DNA of 64,000 nt from assembly GCA_001244265.2 (NCBI GenBank), contig CDLV01000006.1:2356001-2420000 (forward strand). The letters are read 5' to 3'. This document shows, piece by piece, positions 342-34,500 of the stretch. Numbering within the stretch: the stretch's first letter is position 1; each line of letters starts with the position of its first letter. Below the pieces are notes generated by a model, which saw only the letters and a list, made by a program, of their open reading frames with translations, was not told the DNA's origin and ran no database searches. The stretch comes from Microbotryum violaceum (taxonomy: Eukaryota). The position numbers and the translations under genes were made by a program.

Positions 342-3300
342 TCATGAATCGGGCTGCTCCCTCGTCGACATGAGGAACGAAGCAGGGACTTGGATCGTAT
401 CCGAGAAGACACGTTTGTGCGACATGCGTCGTTCCAAAGGGGTCTGCAAATTCCCAAACGAAAGTCGCTTGCCCGCACCGAGACTCGTACCGGTCGATAG
501 CTCATCCTCGGGTAGTGAATCCATCATGGGTAAGTTGGTCTCGGTCGCTGGCGAGTGTGACGCCGTTAGGTCGGTCGAAAGCCCGTCGGAGAAGACGAAT
601 CGACTAAGGATGCCTTTCAACCTGCTCGCTGAATCCGAGCGGGGCAACGTCGGCTTGGAGAATGTAGGTAATCCGATCGGCTTCGTCGTCGTCGTAGGTG
701 ACACTCGAGCCCCGTCCGAGTCCACTGACAGAACTTGAGGGCGATCGTTCGTGCGGTTCGAGCCAGGAAGGGGGAGGACGAAAGAGGTTTGTGGTTGAGG
801 TGAGAAGATCTCGCGTCCTGCCTCGGGCGTCAAGGTCTCGTCGAATGTCCCGTCAATGTGAATCGCCTCTGTTAATCGACCCAGGCTGCTCGAGTTCTGA
901 TCATCAATCTCCTGCTGGATCGCCATGGGCGGTCGTGCAGAAGCGAATGTCTCATTGCTTCCGAGAGGCAAAACGGTTGTCTTCGCCGATGTCTGGGCAA
1001 CGATTTGCGAGTCGATCGTCTCCGGTGTCGAGAGGTGTGATCCCGACGTCAAAGAACCATGACTCGAAATTGGGGTTTTGGGACTACTCGTACTCTCGAC
1101 CTGCTTCGAGGTCCAGGGTGCCAACTTGGCCTCGGCCACGGCGCGCTCCTCCGCATAGTCAGGGAACGGTGGCTCTTCCTCTTCGTCCCTCACGCCCGCG
1201 TCGCCCCGTAATGCACGCTCATATCCCACGAGTTGGAAGACGAGACCCAGATTTGGTCCAACCCATTCCGACTTTTCCTTGACGAAAGAGTAGGTATCGT
1301 GCATGCCCGTACACCCAGCGAGTTCGGGAAGGTGTCGACCTTCCTCGAGCGCCCGAGCCGCTTCCCGCATGCAGTACGCGATGACGACCGTCGCACTACG
1401 CGATACGCCGCATTGGCAATGCACCAGCACTCGGCCCTTGCCGCCGTCGGTAGCTCGAGCTCGATCAAGGAAGTCGAAGGCGTCTTGGAACTTGCGTGCC
1501 TCCACCAGGTCGGACTCGTCGTGACCCCACTGCGATGCACGAACAGGTCACGTCAGCTCAAAGCCCTTGGTAATAGCGCGCACATACATACCCGAGACCT
1601 ACCTTGAGCCATAGATAATCAATCTCGGGTCGACCTGATGTCGGATTCGCGGGAAACTTGATCGACCCATCGGGCGCCGCATCGATGTCCATCTGCGACT
1701 TTCGACGCAATCGCGGTGAGCCACGACGCAAGGAGGGTGACGTGGCTGGTGTGAGAAGGCCAAGAGGTGTGGCAGCGACAGAGGGGTCGACGAATGGTGT
1801 CGGGAGATCGGCATTGGGTGGGGAGACGGTGGAAGCGGTAAAGATGGATTGAAGATTAGGCGTCGACACCGTCGGTCGAACAAAGCCTGGCCGAGCGGGG
1901 AGGCTCGGTTCGGGAACGACGATCACGCCCTGGGTCTTTGTCCGCCGGTGGGACGACTTGCTACGGGCAGGCTGGGGCGCATCTACTCCTGTGGTCGAAG
2001 TCGAAGCGCGGGGTGTCGTCTCCTCACTCGGCGTCCGAGACAAAGAGAAGGTCGGTGGCGGCAACAATGCTCTCTCCTCGTCAACGAACTTGACCGAAGC
2101 GCCCGAGCTCCGTCGCTCGAGGGGTGGCGCGACCAGCGCGGCATCCTCGACCCATGGACAATCGACCTCTTTCGCGACGTTCAAGACAAATCCAAAGCCC
2201 CACTTGGCCAAGACGGCCGGATCGCGCGCGTTCTGCTCACTCCCCAAATAGATACCTGGCACGATTTCACGAGGGCCGAGGGCGTAGGGGTACTCCTCTC
2301 CTGGCTCGTCACCATTGACGCCTCTCCGTTCCGTGTCGTTCTTCCTCAGAAGCTGTACAGTCGAAATCGATGACGGAGAAGAGGTCGAGGTATTGGCGCT
2401 CTGACCTACCGAGACCGACAACGAAGACGATGAAGGAACACTCCCAATACCCTTGGGCACAATGAACAGAGGTTTCGGGCCCGAAGCCGCCCCCGGTCCA
2501 CCGAGTTGAAGTCGAGGGATCGACGTCCTGCGCTTCATATTCCGCCCTCCTCGCATTTGTTCTCGCATCTCGTCGGCCTGCTGCTTCATCGCCAGTCGAT
2601 CGGCGAGCATCAACCGACCGATCGTCCGATCCTCCTGCTCCGCGCCTTCGGGGCCAATAAAGGACTGCAACGATACGCCTGGGGTCGGAGGTAAAGACCG
2701 TGTTTCGGCCTCGTCATCTTCAGAGGCTTCGGGGAGAGATAGAGGCCCGAATGTGACGGTCTCAAGTGGGCTGAGCGGTGAGAGTGCTCCCGATGCGGCT
2801 GTTGAAGATGCGCCGGGGACGAGGAGCGAAAGCCGCTTCTTGTTGAGCATCCGCCTCGCGGCAAGCCCCCCCCCAGGGCTCGGTGGCCCAGGAGGCAATG
2901 AGAAACTTTTCGGTACAGCGATAGAGGTCGACTCGGCAGGGGTTCCACGCGTAGGAAGCGAGACGGTGGGTTCGATCGGATCCGCGCCGATAGCCGGCGA
3001 AGCGGGTTGAACGAACAGGCTCGGCGCAGCGTCATCGTTCATCGCATTGGGTTGGAACGCATTTCCGATGACTCGATGTCGTGTTCTGAAAGCTGCTAAT
3101 CCAAGATCGAGGGCCAACGGAGCACGCGGTGATGTCGACGCCGATGATAATGCTATCCGGCTGGGAGAAGTTGGCGCGCTGAGCCTGGATCCGGACAAAG
3201 GCGAGTTCTTGAGCGTCGGCGAGGCGTGTCGCTCCGGACTACCGCCATTGGTGTCGATCGCTCCGACGCGAGGGGAGAGCGAAGGAGGGGTGGTGGGGGC

Positions 3301-3789: not shown

Positions 3790-4411
3790 ACAGGACGAGA
3801 CCCGCGAGCTGTCAAATCGAGGAAATCGAGTGCCCGAGGAGTTGGTCCGAGCCGAGGTGGCGCTGAGGCGATGTGGGATGGCGTCGGTGTCGTCGTCGTC
3901 GTCGTCGCGCGGACGAGGTCGTGCACGCGCTCGATAAATAGGAGAGAAACCGAAAGCAAGCCCCGTACGACGTTCTTGACGGTCCGAGTGTCAATTACCG
4001 AAGGACTCGGTCAGAACGCTCCACCAAGACGTGTTCGCCCGGATCGGATCCACTCGAGTTGTCGTGCTAGAACGGCGGCGATGATTGCTGCTTATTCAGG
4101 AACGCGACGTCAGCTCGACCGACTCGGTGTGGCACGCCTCCAGCTGGTAGGGAGGGGGACCTGTGACGACTCGGCTTTGTCCAAGCACGCTTGAACGCAC
4201 GACCAGCCAAGCACACGCGATTCCTTTTTGTTTGTCCCAAGAGGAGACGAGTTTTTCCGTTGTAGAAGGGCGGCGATCGTGGCTTGCACACGAGCTCGAG
4301 CGAGCCAGCGGTGGGGTGGAGATGGAGCGAACGAGCAACGACTGGTCGCGTCAGCAGAGCCTCAAGCCGCGCCCAGCAAGCATCCGCATATCCGCCAGCA
4401 AGGCCCTGGGC

Positions 4412-4779
4412 TATGAGGAGCAGCGCAGTGAGCAAACGAAGATGCCGAGTAGAAGAGGATAGGGAACGTTCGAAATGTATTACACTAACCTATGAGGAGC
4501 AGCGCAGTGAGCAAACGAAGATGCCGAGTAGAAGAGGATAGGGAACGTTCGAAAATGTATTACGCTAACCTATGAGGAGCAGCGCAGTGAGCAAACGAAG
4601 ATGCCGAGTAGAAGAGGATAGGGAACGTTAAGGGAAAAGAGAGGGAGAGCCGCGCTAGTCGCTGCCTCGGGTAATCTAAGTCAGAATCTAAAGAGGTCCG
4701 AGCGCGCCCGAGTTCCCATCCCCCAATCTCCGTATGCTGGGGTTGAGAGCGCCCCTGCAATGTAGTGTACACGATGATA
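4412..4779 (-). repeat. 3' LTR: 209-bp core (4571-4779) plus two extra tandem 79/80-bp units (4412-4570)
   Basis: The core matches 8931-9139. The terminal 59 bp recur at 4412-4470 and 4491-4549, separated by near-identical 20/21-bp linkers. Confidence 0.95.
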
Positions 4780-4780
4780 A

Positions 4781-4791
4781 CCCCCCTCGCT
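4781..4791 (-). other. Polypurine tract of the retrotransposon
   Basis: Minus-strand AGCGAGGGGGG lies between the RNase H stop (4793-4795) and the 3' LTR. Confidence 0.85.
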
Positions 4792-4792
4792 G

Positions 4793-7700
4793 TCAGGCTC
4801 CAGGCATTCGGAGGCCTAGACTTTCGCGGTGCCGTACAAAGAGCTTGGGGTCAAGGGCCTTGGTGAGGATGTCGGAGACCATGTCGGCTGTGGCAATGTA
4901 TTCAACCTTGATCTCACCCTTTTTGACCATCTCCCGCACAAAGTGCTCCCGGATGCGAACGTGACGAGTGCCTGAAAACGATGTCGGGTTGCGTGTCAAT
5001 GAATTCGCGCCTTGATTGTCGCCGTAGATCAAGGTGGGTCCCGAGTTCGGAATGCCGAGTTCCTCCAAGAGCTGCTGAAGGTGAATAGCCTCTTTGGAAG
5101 ACTGGGAGAGGGCAATGTACTCAGCGTCGGTGGTAGAATCAGCGACGCGGGACGACCGTTTCGAGCACCAGGAGATCGTTGCACCAGCCAGAAAATATGC
5201 ATAGCCCATCGTCGACTTGGACGTCCGAACGCATGCACCCCAATTCGAGTCGGAGTAGCCGTAGAGCGGACCGGGAGTAGGCGTGTAACGAAGACCGTAC
5301 GAGCTGTTCCTCGAATGTAGCGCAGAACGTGTTTGATCGCGGTCCAGTGCGTCGGTCCGGGCTCCTTGGCAAATCGTGCGAGATAGCTGACAGCGTAGGC
5401 AAGATCGGGACGAGTGCCGAGCGCGGCGTACATCAGGGAGCCGATTGCCTGAAGATAGCGAGTTCGCTCCTGGTCAGAAGGTGTCGATTGATCGAGCTCG
5501 AGGAGGAGATTCTTCTGCATCGGTGTGCTGGCGGGCTTGGCAAGAGCGAGGTCAAAAAGTTCGAGCACGTCCTGTAGGTAGCGCTCCTGAGAGAGGGTAA
5601 TGGAGCCGTCATCGCTACGTTTGAGTTGAATGCCAAGGACGTATTCCGCGTCGCCAAGTCGCTTGATTCCGTACATGTCCTCGAGTGTGGACAGAACCCG
5701 TGCGATCTCGTCGTCCGAGGGGCCAATGAGGAGCAAGTCGTCGACATAGAGCGCGATGTAGTGCCAATCGTTGCCGTGTCGCTTCGTGTAGACGCAGAGA
5801 TCCGAGACCGTGGGCTTGTAGCCGACAGAACGGAGGGTCGAGTCGATCTCGTCGTTCCAGATGCGTCCAGCCTGCTTGAGCCCGTAGATGGATCGTTTGA
5901 GCTTGAGAATCTTACCCGGCAAGTCGATGCCTTGCGGTGGTCGCATGTAGAGAGGCTGGTCGAGCTTGCCGTGCAGATAGGCCTTGTTGACGTCAGCTTG
6001 TTTGATCTTGTAGCCGCACAAGACGGCGATCGCGACGAGGGCTCGGATCGATGTAAAGCGAACAACGGGAGAATAACGCTCCTGAAAATCGAGGCCCGGG
6101 CGTTGAGTGCTGCCGTCAGCGACGAGACGAACCTTCCGCGATTTGACGTTGCCGAACTGATCACGCTTGGTGCGAAAGACGAAGTGGGAGCGTAGCAGCT
6201 TGGCACCGTCGGGCAGGGCGGCTTGGTCGAGAATGAAGTAGACCTTGTACTGGTTCAGCAGCGACGTAAACTCGTCGATGGCTTCGGTTTGCCACTCCGC
6301 GGCGTGTGGAGATCGCATCGCTTGGTGCCAGTGGGCCGGGTCGGCGTCGCGAGAAGGGAGCATGTCGAGTGGGGCTTCGGGTGAGGCGTTGTGGGCGGCG
6401 TAGAAGTTGGAGGTGTGACAGGAACGGCTAGTACCGAAGCTGGCGCCAGGACGGGGTGCAGCACGGTCGTAGGGGCGAGTGAGGGCGGTTCGGGCTCGCA
6501 GACTTGTCGCGCGGCGGCAGGGAACTCGGTCTCCACGAACGTGACGTTGCGACTGATGCGAAGACGCTGGGTGTCAGGATCGTATAATCGATACGCTTTG
6601 GCATGTTGGTCATAACCCACAAAGATCAGTGGGATCCCCTTTGGTTCTAGTTTGGTGCGTTCATGCTGTGGGACGGTGGCCCAGGCGCGGCAGCCGAACG
6701 TGCGCAGTCGTGAGAGGTCTTGGGGAATGCCGTGCCAGATCGCACCTGGTACACCGCCGTCGATCCCTGCGTGTGGCGTGAGGTTCTTGCAGTCGAGATA
6801 GTACTGCGTCGCTTCTTCCCAGAGGTGGGCCGGGAGACCGGAGTCGTGGAGCAGAGCCAAGACGCCCTCTACGATCGATCGATTAAGTCGCTCGGCGCGC
6901 CCGTTCTGTTCGGGCGTGTACGGCACCGACTTGTCGCGACGAATCCCTTGCTCGGCGCAAAACTTGTTGAAAGCAGTGTACTCGCCACCGTTGTCGGAAC
7001 GCAGTGTTTTGATCGTGGCCCCGGAGGCGTTCTCGACTTCGGCCTTCCAGCGCTGAAAGGCAACCAGTGCGTCGCTTTTGCGAAGGAGTGGGAAGGCCCA
7101 AGCTTTGCGCGAGAAGTCGTCGATGAAGGTGATCAGGTAGCGTCGGCCGCTCACGGAGGGCTCAGGGAAGATGAGTAGGTCCGAGTGAACCAGCCCGAGG
7201 GGAAGTGCAGCGTGAGACTCGGACATAGGGAAAGGTAGCTTGTGCGCCTTGGAAGCCATGCATGCATCACATTTGAAATCATTGCAATCATCGTCGCTAT
7301 AAGTCCACTCAATACTCTTCACCTGATCGCTTTTGGCCAGCTTCCTGAGGGTGGGAAGAGAGCAGTGACCAAGGCGGCGGTGAAGGGTCAGCAGTGAGAC
7401 CTTGGGGGTACGAGCGGCGATGAGAGCGGTGTGCGTACATAGATGGGCATCCAAGTGGAAGAGTCGGTCGGATTTGGCCGAACCCGTGCAGACGCGCTTA
7501 CCCCCCTGTCCAGCGAGACTCGTCCGTCTTCGGTGAATGAAGCCGTGATGCCGTCGTTGATGAGCGCGAATACGGAGATGAGATTCGCGGGACAGCCCGG
7601 AACGAAGAAGACGTTGGACAGGCGAATGCGATTGCCTGTTGAAGCGACGAGCTCGATAACACCCGTGCGGTGCGAAGAAAGCGCCCCCCCCTACGCCGCC

Positions 7701-8817
7701 AATCTGCACACGAGGAGTGTTGTGCAGCTCGACGAAGGCAGTTGAGTCGTTGACCATGTGGTGACTGGCGGCAGAGTCGAGGAGGAGGCTAGGCGAGTCC
7801 GACGTGACCGAGAGGAAAGAAGTAGCCGCGAAGGAGACGCTGGGGGCCGTCTCCGAGATCTCGCCGGGGTCGTCCGAGGCAACAGCGAGGCGAGCTTGAG
7901 CGGGCGGCTTGGCGTTCGCATTCTGCTTGGAGCGATTGGGCCGGGGCCTGGAGAAGAATCGCTTCTTTGCATCCTCATCGGTGCATCACGGAGCCAGTGC
8001 AGGGGGCCAGTCTTGCAAGCGGGGCACGGGCCGGGTGGGGTCCCCGACTTGTCCGAGTTCGAGACATACGCGGAAGGGCGTTTGTCGATAATGTTGTGCG
8101 CTGCAACACGCATCGATTTCATCGTCTCCTCGAGGGAAGGAAGCCTGTCCTTTCCCTGGTGCAGTTGAAGGAATGTCTCGCGCCAAGGATCGAGACCGTC
8201 GTTGAAGTTGGTACTGAAGAGGCGGGTGGCGACAAGCACTTGTTCAATGTCGAGGTTCCCTGACGAATCTCTCTGGCGAGATCGAGATCGTGGTTGAGGT
8301 GCTTGTCAAAATCGTCCTTGGAGGAAAGCGGAATCTGGGGCATCGATCAGAATCGCTGGATGAGTTTGGCGTACGCCTGGGCGTCCCGAGGCGAGTAGCG
8401 CTCCTTCAGAGTGATGTAGACTTGAGAGGGGGTGTCGTCTTCTTGGTAGACGTCTTGAATGGATGGGTGCAGCGAGTTGAAGAGGACGCTTCGTACGTAG
8501 TCCTTCCACTGGTCCTGAGTTGCGATGGACCATTCAGCGGGGAAGTTTCCCGTCTGTAGATACGAGAAGATGGGTGTGGGCACTAATGCTTTTAGTGCGC
8601 GATGCCACCGCGGGTAGGCTGCTTCGTCCTTCAGTCGGTTGACCGCCTCGAACGTGATCGACGTGGCAGCGGGGACACGCGGGACGGAGGCGGTCTTGGT
8701 GGTGGTGTCAGGGGGTGAGGACGAGGAAGAGCGGTTGTCACGACCATGAACGTCGAGGACTTGTTGGATAAGAGCCTTGATTTCCTCTGCAGTGGGTGCA
8801 GCAGAAGACGGCGACAT
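4793..8817 (-). pseudogene. Copia gag-pol polyprotein with a nonsense codon and several frameshifts
   Basis: Gag zinc knuckle [14 protein letters not shown](C). Protease [10 protein letters not shown]. Integrase LHRRLGH...[42 protein letters not shown] and YVDDLL. RNase [13 protein letters not shown]. Split over at least 6 ORFs, with TGA at 8347-8349. Confidence 0.95.
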
Positions 8818-8918
8818 GACGGCGCGGGCCAGCGGGGTTGGCCGGGTGGGTGAACGCTCGCGGTGGAAGGCGGTGAAGCTCGTCGAAGCTTGCGTGCTCT
8901 GAGCTGGTAGGTCGGTTG

Positions 8919-8930
8919 GGGCTCATAACC
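8919..8930 (-). other. Primer-binding site complementary to the anticodon arm of initiator tRNA-Met (Hemivirus, copia/Ty5-type half-tRNA priming)
   Basis: GGTTATGAGCCC follows the 5' LTR directly. Its complement GGGCUCAUAACC is the conserved tRNA-iMet anticodon stem-loop. Confidence 0.9.
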
Positions 8931-9139
8931 TATGAGGAGCAGCGCAGTGAGCAAACGAAGATGCCGAGTAGAAGAGGATAGGGAACGTTAAGGGAAAAGA
9001 GAGGGAGAGCCGCGCTAGTCGCTGCCTCGGGTAATCTAAGTCAGAATCTAAAGAGGTCCGAGCGCGCCCGAGTTCCCATCCCCCAATCTCCGTATGCTGG
9101 GGTTGAGAGCGCCCCTGCAATGTAGTGTACACGATGACA
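8931..9139 (-). repeat. 5' LTR (209 bp, TG...TA termini)
   Basis: Direct repeat of 4571-4779 with a single difference (9138 C vs 4778 T). Bounded by the TSD and the PBS. Confidence 0.97.
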
Positions 9140-9432
9140 TGGGCCAGGGGGGCCTCCTGCTGGCACTAACGACGCATGCACGTTGGCGCTAACGATCCAG
9201 GCTTACTCGATTAGGAGGCAGGGAGCCCACTTCGCTTCAGCGCGAGCTTATGGGCCACTGCAGCTTATCGAGGCAGTTCAAGTGTTGCACAACAATTGAA
9301 TAAATCGTCAAGAAGAAGGGAGACGATACCATGTCTATGACAGCTTCTAGCTGGCGGCGCACTTGTATGCTGATAAGAGAGACCCCTCACCCTGGGCCAC
9401 CTCTCAAGGGCACCACATCACTTCGTTCGTGA

Positions 9433-12584: not shown

Positions 12585-12752
12585 CACGCTGAGCAAAGGG
12601 ACGGCAGTCTTTAATCCTCAGCTGCGATTACCGAGTGGGGATGAGGAGAAAGCGTATGATGCGGGATCGGAAGTGAGGTCCTTGCGTGACGCGTGGGAAC
12701 GGTTCGCTCAGGTACAGGCCGATGCATCGCTCATTAGGGATTGGTCGTTGGG
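12585..12752 (+). pseudogene. Dispersed fragment homologous to the FUSC/ArAE transporter gene (33710-33883, opposite strand)
   Basis: Hand alignment gives about 85% nt identity with one 6-bp in-frame gap. Peptide SGDEEKAYDAGSEVRSLRDAWERFAQVQADA vs SGDEEKGYDAGSEVGFLRAAWEHFAQVQADA. Confidence 0.9.
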
Positions 12753-23811: not shown

Positions 23812-23901
23812 CTCGACCCGGGTTCAGCTCCCAGCTGCTCCAAGTGGGGGTGAAGGGAAGGCGAGGGGCAAGACCGACCAGCGCGGTCTCGGTGTCGAAC
23901 G

Positions 23902-23995
23902 CCGAGTACCGAGTACCGAGGACCGAGTACCGAGTACCGAGGACCGAGTACCGAGTACCGAGGACCGAGTACCGAGGACCGAGTACCGAGTACCG
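23902..23995. repeat. 13 copies of heptamer CCGAG(T/G)A with a partial 21-bp higher-order period
   Basis: The variable base runs T,T,G,T,T,G,T,T,G,T,G,T,T. Lies 90-185 bp upstream of the GYP2 ATG. Confidence 0.95.
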
Positions 23996-24342
23996 TGTGA
24001 CCTGAGCGGAGCGTATCCTGCGGCCGAGGCGCTACGGTCTAGTGAGTCGTGCTGCCCAGGGCTATGCGACACTAGAATGGGCGGTGGGTGGTGGCAAGAT
24101 CGAGGCCACGTCTATCGAGGCCACGTTTTGCCAGGCCGAGTTCGACCGGCATTAGAGAGCATTAGAGCTCATTAGGGCCTCCTTTGACTGGGTCTGCGCG
24201 CTTCACCTGGCACTATTTTCCAGGGGAATTTATCCAGGATCCGGACACTGACATTGGGCTTTCTTCATTTCTTTCACACTAAATACAAATTTACCAACAA
24301 AAATGTCAAAGCACCCACCAAAATCTCACCTAGTCCGTCGGA

Positions 24343-26332: not shown

Positions 26333-26727
26333 AAGCCCGTGCTCAGCCTCGTATAGGTCTCTAAGCCGAGAACTCTCTACGACCCAAGCCCGTGTCTCAA
26401 CATGGAATCACTTTATCAGCAAAGCATCAATCCGCGCTCGAAGATGCTGTTGGACGTGGGCCCAAGTACGAGCGAGCTGGCGTGGACTTACGCTCCGAAA
26501 CGTAATCTGACCATTTAGCCGCCCCCCTACCTGATGATCGGGTGATTCATTCTAAGTTTCGAAAGCGCCCGTGAACTTTGAAGCCTCACCAGCATCTTCG
26601 AGCGGGGGGTTGAGACGGCAGCGCTATTTCCATATTTTGCTGACAAAGTGATTCCATGCTGAGACTGCGCGCTTGGCTCGTAGAGGGTTCTCCGCATAGA
26701 GACTTGTGAGAAGCTGAGCACGGGCTT
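26333..26727. mobile_element. Foldback/MITE-like element with long degenerate inverted arms
   Basis: 26333-26452 is the imperfect reverse complement of 26587-26727. Shared blocks are AAGCCCGTGCTCAGC, CATGGAATCACTTT and GCTCGAAGATGCTG. The spacer is about 135 bp. Confidence 0.7.
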
Positions 26728-26884: not shown

Positions 26885-27021
26885 CACCTCTGGCTATATA
26901 CATAAGCACGCTAAAAAGTGGCGCGCGCGGCGCGCCTTCGACCCTCGCTTCCGCGCGGCGTAGCCATACATGTTGCCCGCCTGCAACCCGGGTTGCTGGA
27001 TGGCCCCAGGACTAGGGCAAC
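26885..27021 (+). repeat. Left TIR (137 bp)
   Basis: CACCTCTGGCTATATACATAAG... is the reverse complement of 31079-31215. Confidence 0.95.
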
Positions 27022-31078: not shown

Positions 31079-31215
31079 GTTGCGCTAGTCCTCGCGCCAT
31101 CCAGCAACCCGGGTTACAGGCGGGCAACATGTATGGCTACGCCGCGCGGAAGCGAGGGTCGGAGGCGCGCTGCGCGCGCCACTTTTTAGCGTGCTTATGT
31201 ATATAGCCAGAGGTG
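31079..31215 (-). repeat. Right TIR (137 bp)
   Basis: Ends ...GTATATAGCCAGAGGTG; reverse complement of the left TIR. Confidence 0.95.
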
Positions 31216-31548: not shown

Positions 31549-34500
31549 TCAAAGTACTCCATCGGATATCATGTGGGGGTCGTCGAAGAGCTCCCCGAGA
31601 TACTGCTCCAGGTTTTCAAGCTCGGACGAGACCGACCCGAGCGAGACGAGGTAGAACCTATTCAAAAGGCAAGCGGTTGGACACGAGTAATCAGAACGGG
31701 TGCCCACAACGAGCTTCGGCATGTGTGAAACATGTAGCGACTCACCAGTACCTGAGAAATCCAGGTCGTTTGAGCTCGGCCTCGCCTCGCGGCAATTGAC
31801 TAGACCGATGAGCAGTCGATGATCAGCTTTCACACGACGCGACAGTATACTCAGATCCTATAAAGAATAAACTGACCTTAGACGACGGGATAAAACGAGT
31901 GCATCGTTCTCGAACGACGCCCAGGTCGGCTTGGAAGAAGGGACGTCACGCGCCAATGGGGTCTTGCACATCACTGTGAAGCGTCCACAACCCAGTCAGC
32001 TCCACACCACCATCTCAATTACCCCGAGAACAAGCCATCAAACTCACGCGACGTCGCCGCAAGATGGAACAACACCCTCGCCAACCTCTGCGAATGCAGC
32101 CGATAAGGGAACAACACACTCGCGAAATCTTTATGCACCGTCTCGTTAAACCCTCTGGTCCCGACCGCCGTTCGAGCCTCCCTCAATCGATCCAGAATAA
32201 TTTGGTGCGAGTTGATGATCTTGAGCAAGACGCCGGCTTTAAAGGGGAGGCCAAAGGTAGGCTCGACTTTGGCGTACCCGAACGTCGTTGGAAGCTTCAA
32301 GAGCGCGGATTGGATCGCGATTTCTTGTTGGACTAACTCGTCGGCGATTTGATCCAATGCTTCGGGTGAAGGCATGGGTGCATCATCGGCGGGTGCGACG
32401 ACGTTGATCAGAGTCTGCAAAAGCGTATTGTACCGCGCGAGCGATGAGGTGATGGTCGCGATCTCCTTTCGAAGCTGTCGTCGAGCTGGAGACCTCCAGA
32501 AGAAGAGTTGCAAGATCGCCGAAATACCGATCGAGATGCCCATTGAGCCAATGAGGTGGGCGAAGCGAAGCGGCGGAGCTTCGTAGGGCTGTCTGAGCGT
32601 CGCCATCGCCACTGGGTTCTCGTTGTAGAGGTATTCGAGAATGACGACGTTGCCGCTACCGACCATCATCAGTAACGAGGCGGTATAGTACTGCGGGCTC
32701 CCGTAGAAGATGAAGGATGAGAAGGCGGCCCAAACAGCGATCGCTGCCGCGAGACCATAAGGGTTGTAAACGTGTCCTCCAGCGTTGTGAAAAATCTCGA
32801 GCACGATCAAGCCGTACAGAGCACCGACCCCCGTGCCCGCAAGCTGCAGGGCCCAAGTCCAGGTCGTTTGGCCCAAGGTGGGTGAGATGGCGACGATGAC
32901 GGTGATGAGTGACGATGTCATGCCATATTTGAGAAAAAGGTTCGTTTGAAGGGACGGCGTGAGGATGAAGACTGTGTACAACGAGGCACCGATGGCGACT
33001 TTGAAGGCGTCTATACGGCGTGCAGGGATTATTCAGTCTCATTCTGGCCCATCAAATTGAGGTTCATACCATTTGAAGAGCAACTTACAAAGCGATCGAT
33101 CACCCCTCAACCACCTTTCGAACCAGACGAAACGCTGTGTAAGGGTGACCTTTGGCGCTGTATAAGGGTCGCCTTTCAGTGTCGCCAGAGCTTCAGGTAA
33201 CGTCATCCCGTTCGGCCTTTGCCATGGCGCCAATAGTTTCTGCCGCAGGGTGTTAAAAATGTAAGGTCGGATCCGTTTCTTGCGATTGGTTGTGACGAGC
33301 GAATGAAGTGAGCACAATTCATCGGTCAGTTGCCTAGCGTGAGGACGCCGGGCATCAGCTCTCGACTTGTGCATAATCTCAACGGGAGTAGAAGTGAACT
33401 AACCCGAAGCCAAAAAGGATCGAATACGACTTGGTCAACGCCGCCGAGATGGCCACCTCTTCCGGAGGTGCAGAGTCTTTGCGCCCTCTCGAGGATCCGG
33501 CAAAGCTGCTCATGGGTACGGCGTGTCGTATGCGTCTCAGGGACGTCTCGGCGACGAGCGAGCTTGTCCAAGCTTTGGGGAGTCGATCCGCGTACCTATC
33601 GTACACACTCACGTGAGTCTGAAGCCCCCTCAATAGGATCCGAAGATGCTCAACTCACATCATCTGTAATCCCGGCATCCCTTCCTCGATCCTCAAAACA
33701 TCCTCGATACCCAATGACCCATCCTTGATGAGCGATATCAACGCATCGGCCTGCACCTGAGCAAAGTGTTCCCACGCGGCACGCAAGAACCCCACTTCCG
33801 ATCCCGCATCATACCCTTTCTCCTCATCCCCACTCAGCGTTCGTCGTTTGGGGTCAAAGACCGTCGTCCGTTTGCTCAGCGTGTGGCGCAGGTCGGCGGC
33901 GGCTTGGGCTTGTTCCTCCGGTGTGGTGGGATCGTTCGTCGTGGGCGCATTGGACACGCTCGATTCTTTCGATGCGTGTTGTTGCCTAACTTCAGACCGT
34001 TGTACCTCTCTCCTCAACTTGTCCCCGATGCTCATCAATTGCTCGATCGTCTCCTTGCGTGATAAAGGCGCGCCCGCCACAGGCTCTGCCGCACCTGTTC
34101 TTGGCTGCGTCGCGGGTGGTGGCAGTGTCGGTTCTTGATTGGCGCGAGAATGCATGTGCCATCGTTCCCTCATCTCTTGCCCGTGCACATCTTCTTCGCC
34201 AGTATGTTTCCTCTGCTGTTGTTTTTTATCATTCCCTAGCAACTGATCAACGATAGAAGCGATGACCAAATCGATGCCTCTTCGAAACGCCTTGAACGTC
34301 GCCGCCGATTCACTCCTCGCCAACAAGTGACGCTTGACATTGATCCCTTCCGGATCGAGTTCGTCAATCAGATCCAGCGCCGAGGAGGACGTGATCAAGG
34401 CCTGTTGCAAGCCTTGCACTTTGGCGATCATGTCCTGCCAATCGACGAGACGGAATTGGGAATGAAGGCGAACTTCGTAAGCCGTTTCTTCGAGGCGCGA

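Follow-up and report, generated by a model that had tools for sequence, protein, structure and literature searches.

A Ty1/copia element whose long terminal repeats differ by intron-shaped repeat units

The locus and its Ty1/copia element

The DNA analysed here, referred to as the window, is a stretch of 64,000 nt (G000:C4:2356001-2420000) from a 33.2-Mb, 20-contig eukaryotic assembly, within which the genome searches were made. At 9139-4412, on the minus strand, it contains a Ty1/copia element with a 209-nt 5' LTR and a 368-nt 3' LTR. In element order, its features are:

9140..9144, minus strand: 5' target site duplication (TSD) GCCCA, from sequence reading
8931..9139, minus strand: 5' LTR, 209 nt, TG...TA ends, without an extra unit
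8931..8989, minus strand: segment A, 59 nt, putative R(-U5); the RNA probably starts at its first base
8902..8930, minus strand: primer binding site (PBS) next to the LTR, able to pair with the 5' half of mature host tRNA-Met(CAT)
7345..7438, minus strand: internal GT-AG intron of 94 nt, covering the beginning of the GAG-pre-integrase domain, joined in run X16
6255..7985, minus strand: open frame with GAG-pre-integrase, integrase core and SH3-like domains
5029..6573, minus strand: open frame with RVT_2 reverse transcriptase (E 4.7e-54)
4781..4788, minus strand: polypurine tract (PPT)
4412..4779, minus strand: whole 3' LTR, 368 nt
4571..4779, minus strand: core of the 3' LTR, U3 plus the first copy of A (4629-4571), 1 difference from the 5' LTR
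4550..4570, minus strand: linker 1, 21 nt, with GGTTA like the PBS start, donor-like GTTAGC and AATACA
4491..4549, minus strand: second copy of A
4471..4490, minus strand: linker 2, 20 nt, with donor-like GTTAGT followed by TGTAATACA
4412..4470, minus strand: third copy of A, the end of the integrated element
4407..4411, minus strand: 3' TSD GCCCA, the first G of which completes the outer AG

The element has two LTRs, a 5-bp TSD, a PPT and a tRNA-Met PBS, and its integrase lies upstream of RVT_2, which is the copia order; the gag-pol frame of this copy is interrupted and falls into several pieces. The PBS matches host tRNA-Met(CAT), which has initiator features, at 26 positions over a 29-column alignment. 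The host gene (C12:29062-29153) carries a 19-nt intron, and the PBS fits the mature 5' half. Complementarity to the anticodon stem-loop of initiator tRNA-Met identifies a half-tRNA-primed element of the copia/Ty5 type. Canonical TG...CA termini and equal LTRs are absent: all tabulated copies of this family, here called family A, end in TG...TA, and the LTRs measure 209 and 368 nt. These atypical ends and unequal LTRs do not overturn Ty1/copia membership.

Downstream of the copia element, a reading frame with a dual-specificity phosphatase domain lies at 342-1547 (minus strand). The window also holds a probable DNA transposon marked by 137-nt inverted repeats (26885-27021 and 31079-31215; 96% complementary, 4057 nt apart), a short MITE-like element with 60+30-nt inverted arms (26333-26727), a 7-nt tandem array of about 13 copies (23873-24005) and a 141-nt inverted repeat pair (12585-12725 and 33743-33883; 84% complementary, 21 kb apart).

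Reverse transcription is described as yielding identical LTRs (PMC6894440). Read in LTR phase, the 3' end of this element is A(4629-4571)-linker(4570-4550)-A(4549-4491)-linker(4490-4471)-A(4470-4412), and thus contains two extra units, each a linker plus a copy of the last 59 nt (A) of the short LTR. A preliminary description of the locus had read the same bases as two intron-shaped units of host-like size, absent from the 5' LTR and enclosed by the TSD, and on all these points it was borne out. The units span 4569-4490 (80 nt, GTTAGC...GCTCAC...CATAG) and 4489-4411 (79 nt, GTTAGT...GCTCAC...CATAG), and the outer one takes its last G, at 4411, from the start of the TSD GCCCA (4411-4407; other copy at 9144-9140). 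The 5' LTR (9139-8931) has 1 difference from the first 209 nt of the 3' LTR and runs from CATA into the PBS as GGTTATGAGCCCC. The linker occurs twice in the window, both times in the 3' LTR (0.00 expected from 100 shuffles), and the TSD sits outside both extra units. At 79-80 nt, the units match the median of 80 nt found in a host sample of 15 hand-read introns from three actin-family genes (62-105 nt).

Distribution of units in family A

Searched against the assembly, A gave 80 matches and the LTR start 42, and all multi-copy clusters of family A were inspected. No unit is found in the eight PBS-flanked (5') LTRs (seven tabulated plus L184), while units are present in three of the eight PPT-flanked LTRs (one, two and three units) and in 13 of 27 solo or other LTRs (one to four units). 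The contrast between 5' LTRs and 3' or solo LTRs is 0/8 versus 15/34 (Fisher p=0.035); against PPT-flanked 3' LTRs alone it gives p=0.2, the numbers being small. For the count of 15/34, L002/L003 were entered once, as were six passenger copies of one old insertion, and L014 is included among the 15 with a tRNA copy as its linker, unlike the others. L002 and L003 (G000:C1:2000413 and 1906567) represent one insertion with a shared 3' flank and three units, seen once as a TSD-flanked solo LTR and once as the 3' portion of an element. An exact-match pattern for a GT[TG]AG[CT] unit of 53-83 nt ending directly at the PBS, which other donors would escape, found none assembly-wide; its single match belongs to another family, and there the unit is LTR-internal. 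Longer LTR pairs could collapse to solos faster, which may hide unit-bearing 5' LTRs. The long LTR form postulated in the preliminary description therefore does exist, with units that are real, heritable and intron-shaped, and the tabulation makes 5'-short/3'-long the family-A pattern.

Ten of the 13 unit-bearing solo or other LTRs fall among the 21 with a matching TSD, and the TSD always lies beyond the outermost unit; this holds for the 10 solo LTRs (one to four units) and for two full elements. Both of these TSD-matched, unit-bearing full elements, the window element and L026/L012, are short-5'/long-3'. Because the TSD lies beyond the outermost unit, the units were present on the integrating DNA. 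The window element and the solo LTR L004 have the same linker-1/linker-2 variants, which indicates that the two-unit state is transmitted. All units restart at the same base, the first base of A.

These observations also bear on the possibility that the assembly has misrepresented a tandem repeat. The two linkers differ by a homopolymer base, as might be expected of such an artefact, but they also differ by a substitution, and the extra T of linker 1 is found again in L004 (in linker 1 only) and in one contig of run X18. In addition, units occur at 15 independent family-A insertions with TSDs, and the same build is seen in three other families. An artefact is very unlikely, because units recur across family A and the two-unit state is common to the window and L004.

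Some copies have changed since insertion. An old family-A insertion has been multiplied as a passenger of another repeat; six of these copies keep one unit, and L066 has lost it although its flank has no AG acceptor. A partial deletion lies inside the unit of L098, and adjacent units of L005 have a variant in common. These cases favour a rival reading in which a tandem repeat at the LTR end is altered after insertion by slippage, unequal exchange or ectopic conversion, and the family-A polarity is a small-sample or solo-formation effect. We consider this reading unlikely: it leaves unexplained both the contrast of 0/8 versus 15/34 and the identical start points of the units.

The linker in other families

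The linker core has 43 matches in the genome (control 5), and a degenerate form has 105 (control 0). In families B and C, whose LTRs have TG...CA ends and whose RT identity to family A is ~34-38%, GGTTAGTTG(T/A)AATACAT is flanked on each side by a copy of an unrelated segment of 78-80 nt that ends in ATAG; another 46-75 nt of LTR comes after the second copy. Between A and B, no LTR similarity of note was seen apart from the linker (20/22 positions). An AG/GTTAGT donor (the slash marks the junction) is conserved in four families with otherwise unalignable LTRs, and the A copies are homogenised within families and different between them. The fourth family, at L213 (G000:C3:2995656-2995747), has the build A-AG/GTTAGT-linker-A-short U5-PBS, and its linker is without AATACA.

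Two candidate sources of the linker were rejected: the tRNA-Met intron, where the match stops at GGT, and another host RNA, for which the four non-unit GTAATACATTT matches examined equal the control level of 5. ARAGORN found nothing at L189, L190 and L035, and Rfam nothing at L189, L190 and L012. L189 (G000:C13:307315) is a non-LTR site at which the family-A linker is seemingly broken by 10 bases, possibly by chance.

In family C, 83 of 92 PBS junctions were retrieved in 82 loci, and 63 non-duplicate elements with both LTRs were parsed; one duplicate and one unparsed TSD-matched element were excluded, and the rest were missing one LTR. Among the 39 TSD-matched elements, unit counts (5',3') are (0,0) in 17, (1,1) in nine, (1,0) in eight, (2,0) in two and (0,1) in three. 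A third of these intact insertions (13/39) thus have unequal LTRs, 10 of them 5'-long and three 3'-long (p=0.09), and 19/39 have a unit-bearing 5' LTR. Family B, read by eye at 18 loci, has such 5' LTRs as well; its TSD-matched elements are three (0,0), one (0,1) and one (1,1). Since family C leans 5'-long, the 5'-short/3'-long arrangement is a family-A trait and not a rule.

TSDs are unmatched in 24 of the 63 family-C elements, and post-insertion exchange is therefore common and able to create discordance. Alteration after insertion is further favoured by four of the 13 discordant elements, which have 4-5 U3 substitutions, and by the finding that U3 is no more concordant than U5. On the other side, discordant elements are not significantly older (Mann-Whitney p=0.19-0.25), and a 20-nt linker common to families at ~34% RT identity is left unexplained. 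Seven of the 13 discordant elements have no U3 substitutions, and four are otherwise substitution-free in both U3 and U5. A two-template signature confined to R-U5 was considered and is not supported (within/between-element divergence 0.55 in U3, 0.39 in U5).

Only 7/75 family-C PBSs are of the tRNA type, which argues that the 5' junction in this family mostly follows the RNA template. The elements with a tRNA-type PBS are concordant in 3/3 cases versus 14/36 (p=0.07), a small sample. Across the family-C loci L099-L180, U5 is identical in 9/9 TSD-matched elements with units in both LTRs versus 7/17 unit-less ones (p=0.004).

RNA-like sequencing runs

Contigs of three runs guessed to be RNA (X15, X16 and X18) and of DNA run X2 were compared with the single-unit family-A element L181. 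Run X15 looks like DNA, with a flat depth of ~8-12 and an LTR depth of ~117. In X16, one contig (depth 327, 29 letters on the short side) contains a 94-nt GT..AG joint equal to window 7438-7345; among the matches listed, this joint is not in X15, X18 or X2. The same intron ends are present in three other family-A copies. Because X16 shows a joint that X2 lacks, family-A RNA appears to be handled by the spliceosome at this internal intron, which likely serves a subgenomic gag RNA as in EVD and BARE1. The short A-to-PBS joint has a depth of 1981 in X16 and is found in DNA too (X2, 339). At this LTR/PBS joint (L181:4359>1), X16 has C at PBS position 6, and the genome, X15 and X2 have T.

Run X18 has 3'-biased cover, with LTR depth equal to internal depth, and its bins without cover carry no weight alone. 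A 110-nt contig of this run (depth 14.2, beside 13 for U3 and 12.6 for RT) starts with the first base of A, crosses the linker and stops 30 nt inside the following A copy. If this run, whose organism label differs, is RNA as guessed, the contig would represent RNA running through the unspliced linker at the 3' end. Neither a tail on this contig nor a poly(A) site was seen, and contigs cannot show ends.

Intron-like features of the unit

A true intron is a second rival reading. Here the unit would be a 5' leader intron, short spliced strong-stop DNA would rebuild the long LTR on a downstream A, and unequal LTRs would be spliced/unspliced hybrids. The unit has a GT donor, a YAG acceptor and a length at the host median (80 nt, n=15), although its outer acceptor depends on a TSD base. 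GTTAGT is compatible with the GTNAGT host donors. The conservation of AG/GTTAGT in four families, with 20/22 linker positions shared by A and B despite 34-38% RT identity, favours this reading, as do the homogenised A copies, the unit-bearing 5' LTRs of families B and C, the internal intron spliced in X16 and the four discordant family-C elements otherwise free of U3 and U5 substitutions.

Several of the intron-like features have other explanations, however. A CA or TA end followed by GGTTATG makes AG/GT at the LTR/PBS border in all four families checked, so the zero-length AG/GT junction is built in wherever such an LTR end meets this PBS. In the small hand-read host sample, the CTCAC motif is the branch pick in 0/15 introns, its distance to the end of AG (19 nt) lies below the host range of 21-47 nt, and TAG is the end of 1/15. 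A G from the TSD follows the LTR end in 6/15 unit-bearing and 7/19 unit-less family-A LTRs (by eye; p=1), so there is no enrichment of G after the outer unit in this set, and the outer acceptor G is chance. The conserved donor would be equally explained by U1 binding without splicing, as reported for foamy viruses in PMC3694450. Together with the family-A 5' LTRs, none of which bears a unit (0/8, and none genome-wide by pattern), and the loss in L066 without an acceptor, these points make a self-regenerating LTR intron rather unlikely in our judgement.

The preliminary description had gone further and proposed a chimeric origin of the window copy, from spliced as well as unspliced templates. 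This part is unsupported. No family-A 5' LTR has units that could mark an unspliced parent, the same progeny comes without splicing from an element that is already short-5'/long-3', and family C has the opposite polarity; the frequency of G after the outer unit and the L066 loss also weigh against it. The earlier interpretation is thus partly supported overall, and a spliced chimera is not needed for the window copy. Spliced and repeat-deleted products are identical in sequence, and splicing of the repeat units is possible; the 5'-LTR units of B and C may be spliced even if the asymmetry of the window copy needed no splicing. An assignment of the short LTRs to A1 or A2 parentage was discarded: the apparent 8:1 excess of A1 mostly reflects the variable last linker base, the first position being linker. 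The RNA structure of the unit is not significant either (z = -1.5 to -1.7).

Products of aberrant strand transfer

Directly after the LTR end, copies of 22-33 nt of the mature tRNA-Met 5' half are found at L014:1708, L079, L120, L154, L156, L160 and L193, with long copies at six loci. Plus-strand synthesis thus sometimes runs over most of the primer, and the resulting copy becomes integrated. At L014 the order is LTR, tRNA-half copy and second A; at L079 a gag piece is joined to A at its first base, followed by the tRNA copy. In another copia family, L186 (G000:C1:861200-862300) has 88 nt duplicated exactly, from the LTR end across the PBS into the leader. These three loci are fresh products of aberrant RT jumping. 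From L079, and from the common starting point of the units, we infer that the RNA begins with the first base of A. The scrambled family-C 5' end at L193 (G000:C5:131700-133300) combines several repeats of LTR end and PBS with a linker unit and an inverted stretch of LTR, and reflects either multiple aberrant jumps or an assembly knot.

A proposed strand-transfer model for the unit

The reading that we favour, at about even chances, is that the unit consists of a linker resembling a donor and poly(A) module plus a copy of R at the RNA 3' end, and is gained and lost by out-of-register strand transfers. It builds on the observed layout, heritability and polarity of the units, on the copying of the primer and on the linker in an RNA-like run; the RNA start site, the poly(A) role and the jump registers are putative. 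Family-A RNA would begin with A, at its first base; where a copy has units, the RNA would extend past a linker and end inside the next copy of A. The linker would hold a 5' splice-site motif followed by UGUA/AAUACA, which we take to be a poly(A)-like motif. A search of the open-licence literature for basidiomycete poly(A) signals found nothing. Minus-strand strong-stop DNA, a copy of A, could then land on any copy of A at the RNA 3' end, giving 3' LTRs with 0 to n units, and out-of-register re-jumps would add units. Integrase would cut at the outermost A. The 5' LTR would be completed in the inner register, in which, on the minus strand, A with GGTTA corresponds to A with the PBS; alternatively, it would shed the unit by direct-repeat deletion. 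The short-5'/long-3' state would then perpetuate itself in family A without splicing.

Strand transfer is favoured by the TSD outside the units, the state shared with L004, the contrast of 0/8 versus 15/34, the aberrant jumps, the X18 contig and the seven U3-clean discordant elements out of 13. Counting against it, the two LTRs of an element resemble each other no more closely in U3 than in U5, family C leans 5'-long, ectopic exchange is common and the family-A numbers are small.

A broader life-cycle reading, possible but on balance doubtful, would apply to a whole lineage of fungal copia elements. A donor and poly(A) module would be retained at the 3' LTR, shed from the 5' LTR and rebuilt in each round of reverse transcription, with shedding by splicing in some families and by strand-transfer register in family A. 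If true, it would solve the 5'/3' polyadenylation problem by differing LTRs, and the unit would be a natural intron surviving RNA passage.

Implications and comparison with known systems

In the open-licence literature, we found no description of copia LTRs in which an R repeat is modular, carries a donor and occurs in unequal numbers. The 5'/3' unit tabulation, the primer-copy products and the linker in RNA-like contigs are new here. LTR identity underlies LTR dating and LTR-pair finders, which have been used for these fungi (PMC10502011); the available text of that Microbotryum transposable element paper assumes LTR identity at insertion and does not contain the word 'intron'. LTRs of differing length are found here in a third of the intact family-C insertions and in both TSD-matched, unit-bearing full elements of family A. 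In a half-tRNA-primed element, unit count is also a built-in marker of template and register for each strand transfer. Were the unit spliced as well, a retroelement would here be maintaining a natural intron, and intron birth at an LTR/PBS proto-splice site would have a present-day example.

In the Rogers model, introns are said to be born by tandem duplication across AG/GT. Duplication across the LTR-end/PBS proto-splice site similarly gives an intron-shaped unit, with L014 and L186 as fresh cases; unlike in that model, the linker is not a copy of the present PBS and leader beyond GGTTA. The Ty1 PBS is reportedly not inherited from the tRNA (Lauermann and Boeke 1994, by its title), and the PBS is mostly not tRNA-inherited here either.

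Drosophila copia and yeast Ty5 are described as Ty1/copia elements primed by half of tRNA-iMet (PMC5371799). The window element resembles them in its anticodon stem-loop PBS adjoining the LTR and in its copia domain order, but differs in its TG...TA ends, its variable linker+R tandem and the unequal LTRs of its relatives in family C. Copia gag introns are reported in Arabidopsis EVD and barley BARE1 (PMC5580714), and are similar to the 94-nt, frame-shifting GT-AG intron downstream of gag/protease, which is partly spliced (in X16 among four runs). The EVD and BARE1 introns are internal; the available text of that account includes neither LTR units nor the word 'fungal'.

Precise deletion between direct repeats by retroviral RT is documented well (PMC3187697), and losing one repeat plus the spacer would give exactly the short LTR seen here. 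Such deletion alone leaves the persistence of the units, their growth to four and the cross-family linker unexplained. Donor followed by TGTAATACA suggests a U1/poly(A) module like that of foamy viruses, although the fourth family is without AATACA. In the foamy-virus LTR (PMC3694450), a donor lies directly upstream of the poly(A) signal within R, like the motif pair of the linker. The two foamy LTRs do not differ, and their control works through U1 and RNA structure, whereas here the motif pair is present or absent and its poly(A) role is putative.

Unequal LTRs are also reported for HIV-1 proviruses, as deletions in 26/88 (about 30%), explained by template switching between co-packaged RNAs (PMC9278108). 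As described there, the HIV-1 change is a defective 3' deletion; here, in contrast, it is a precise, modular and heritable unit, gained at the 3' end in family A.
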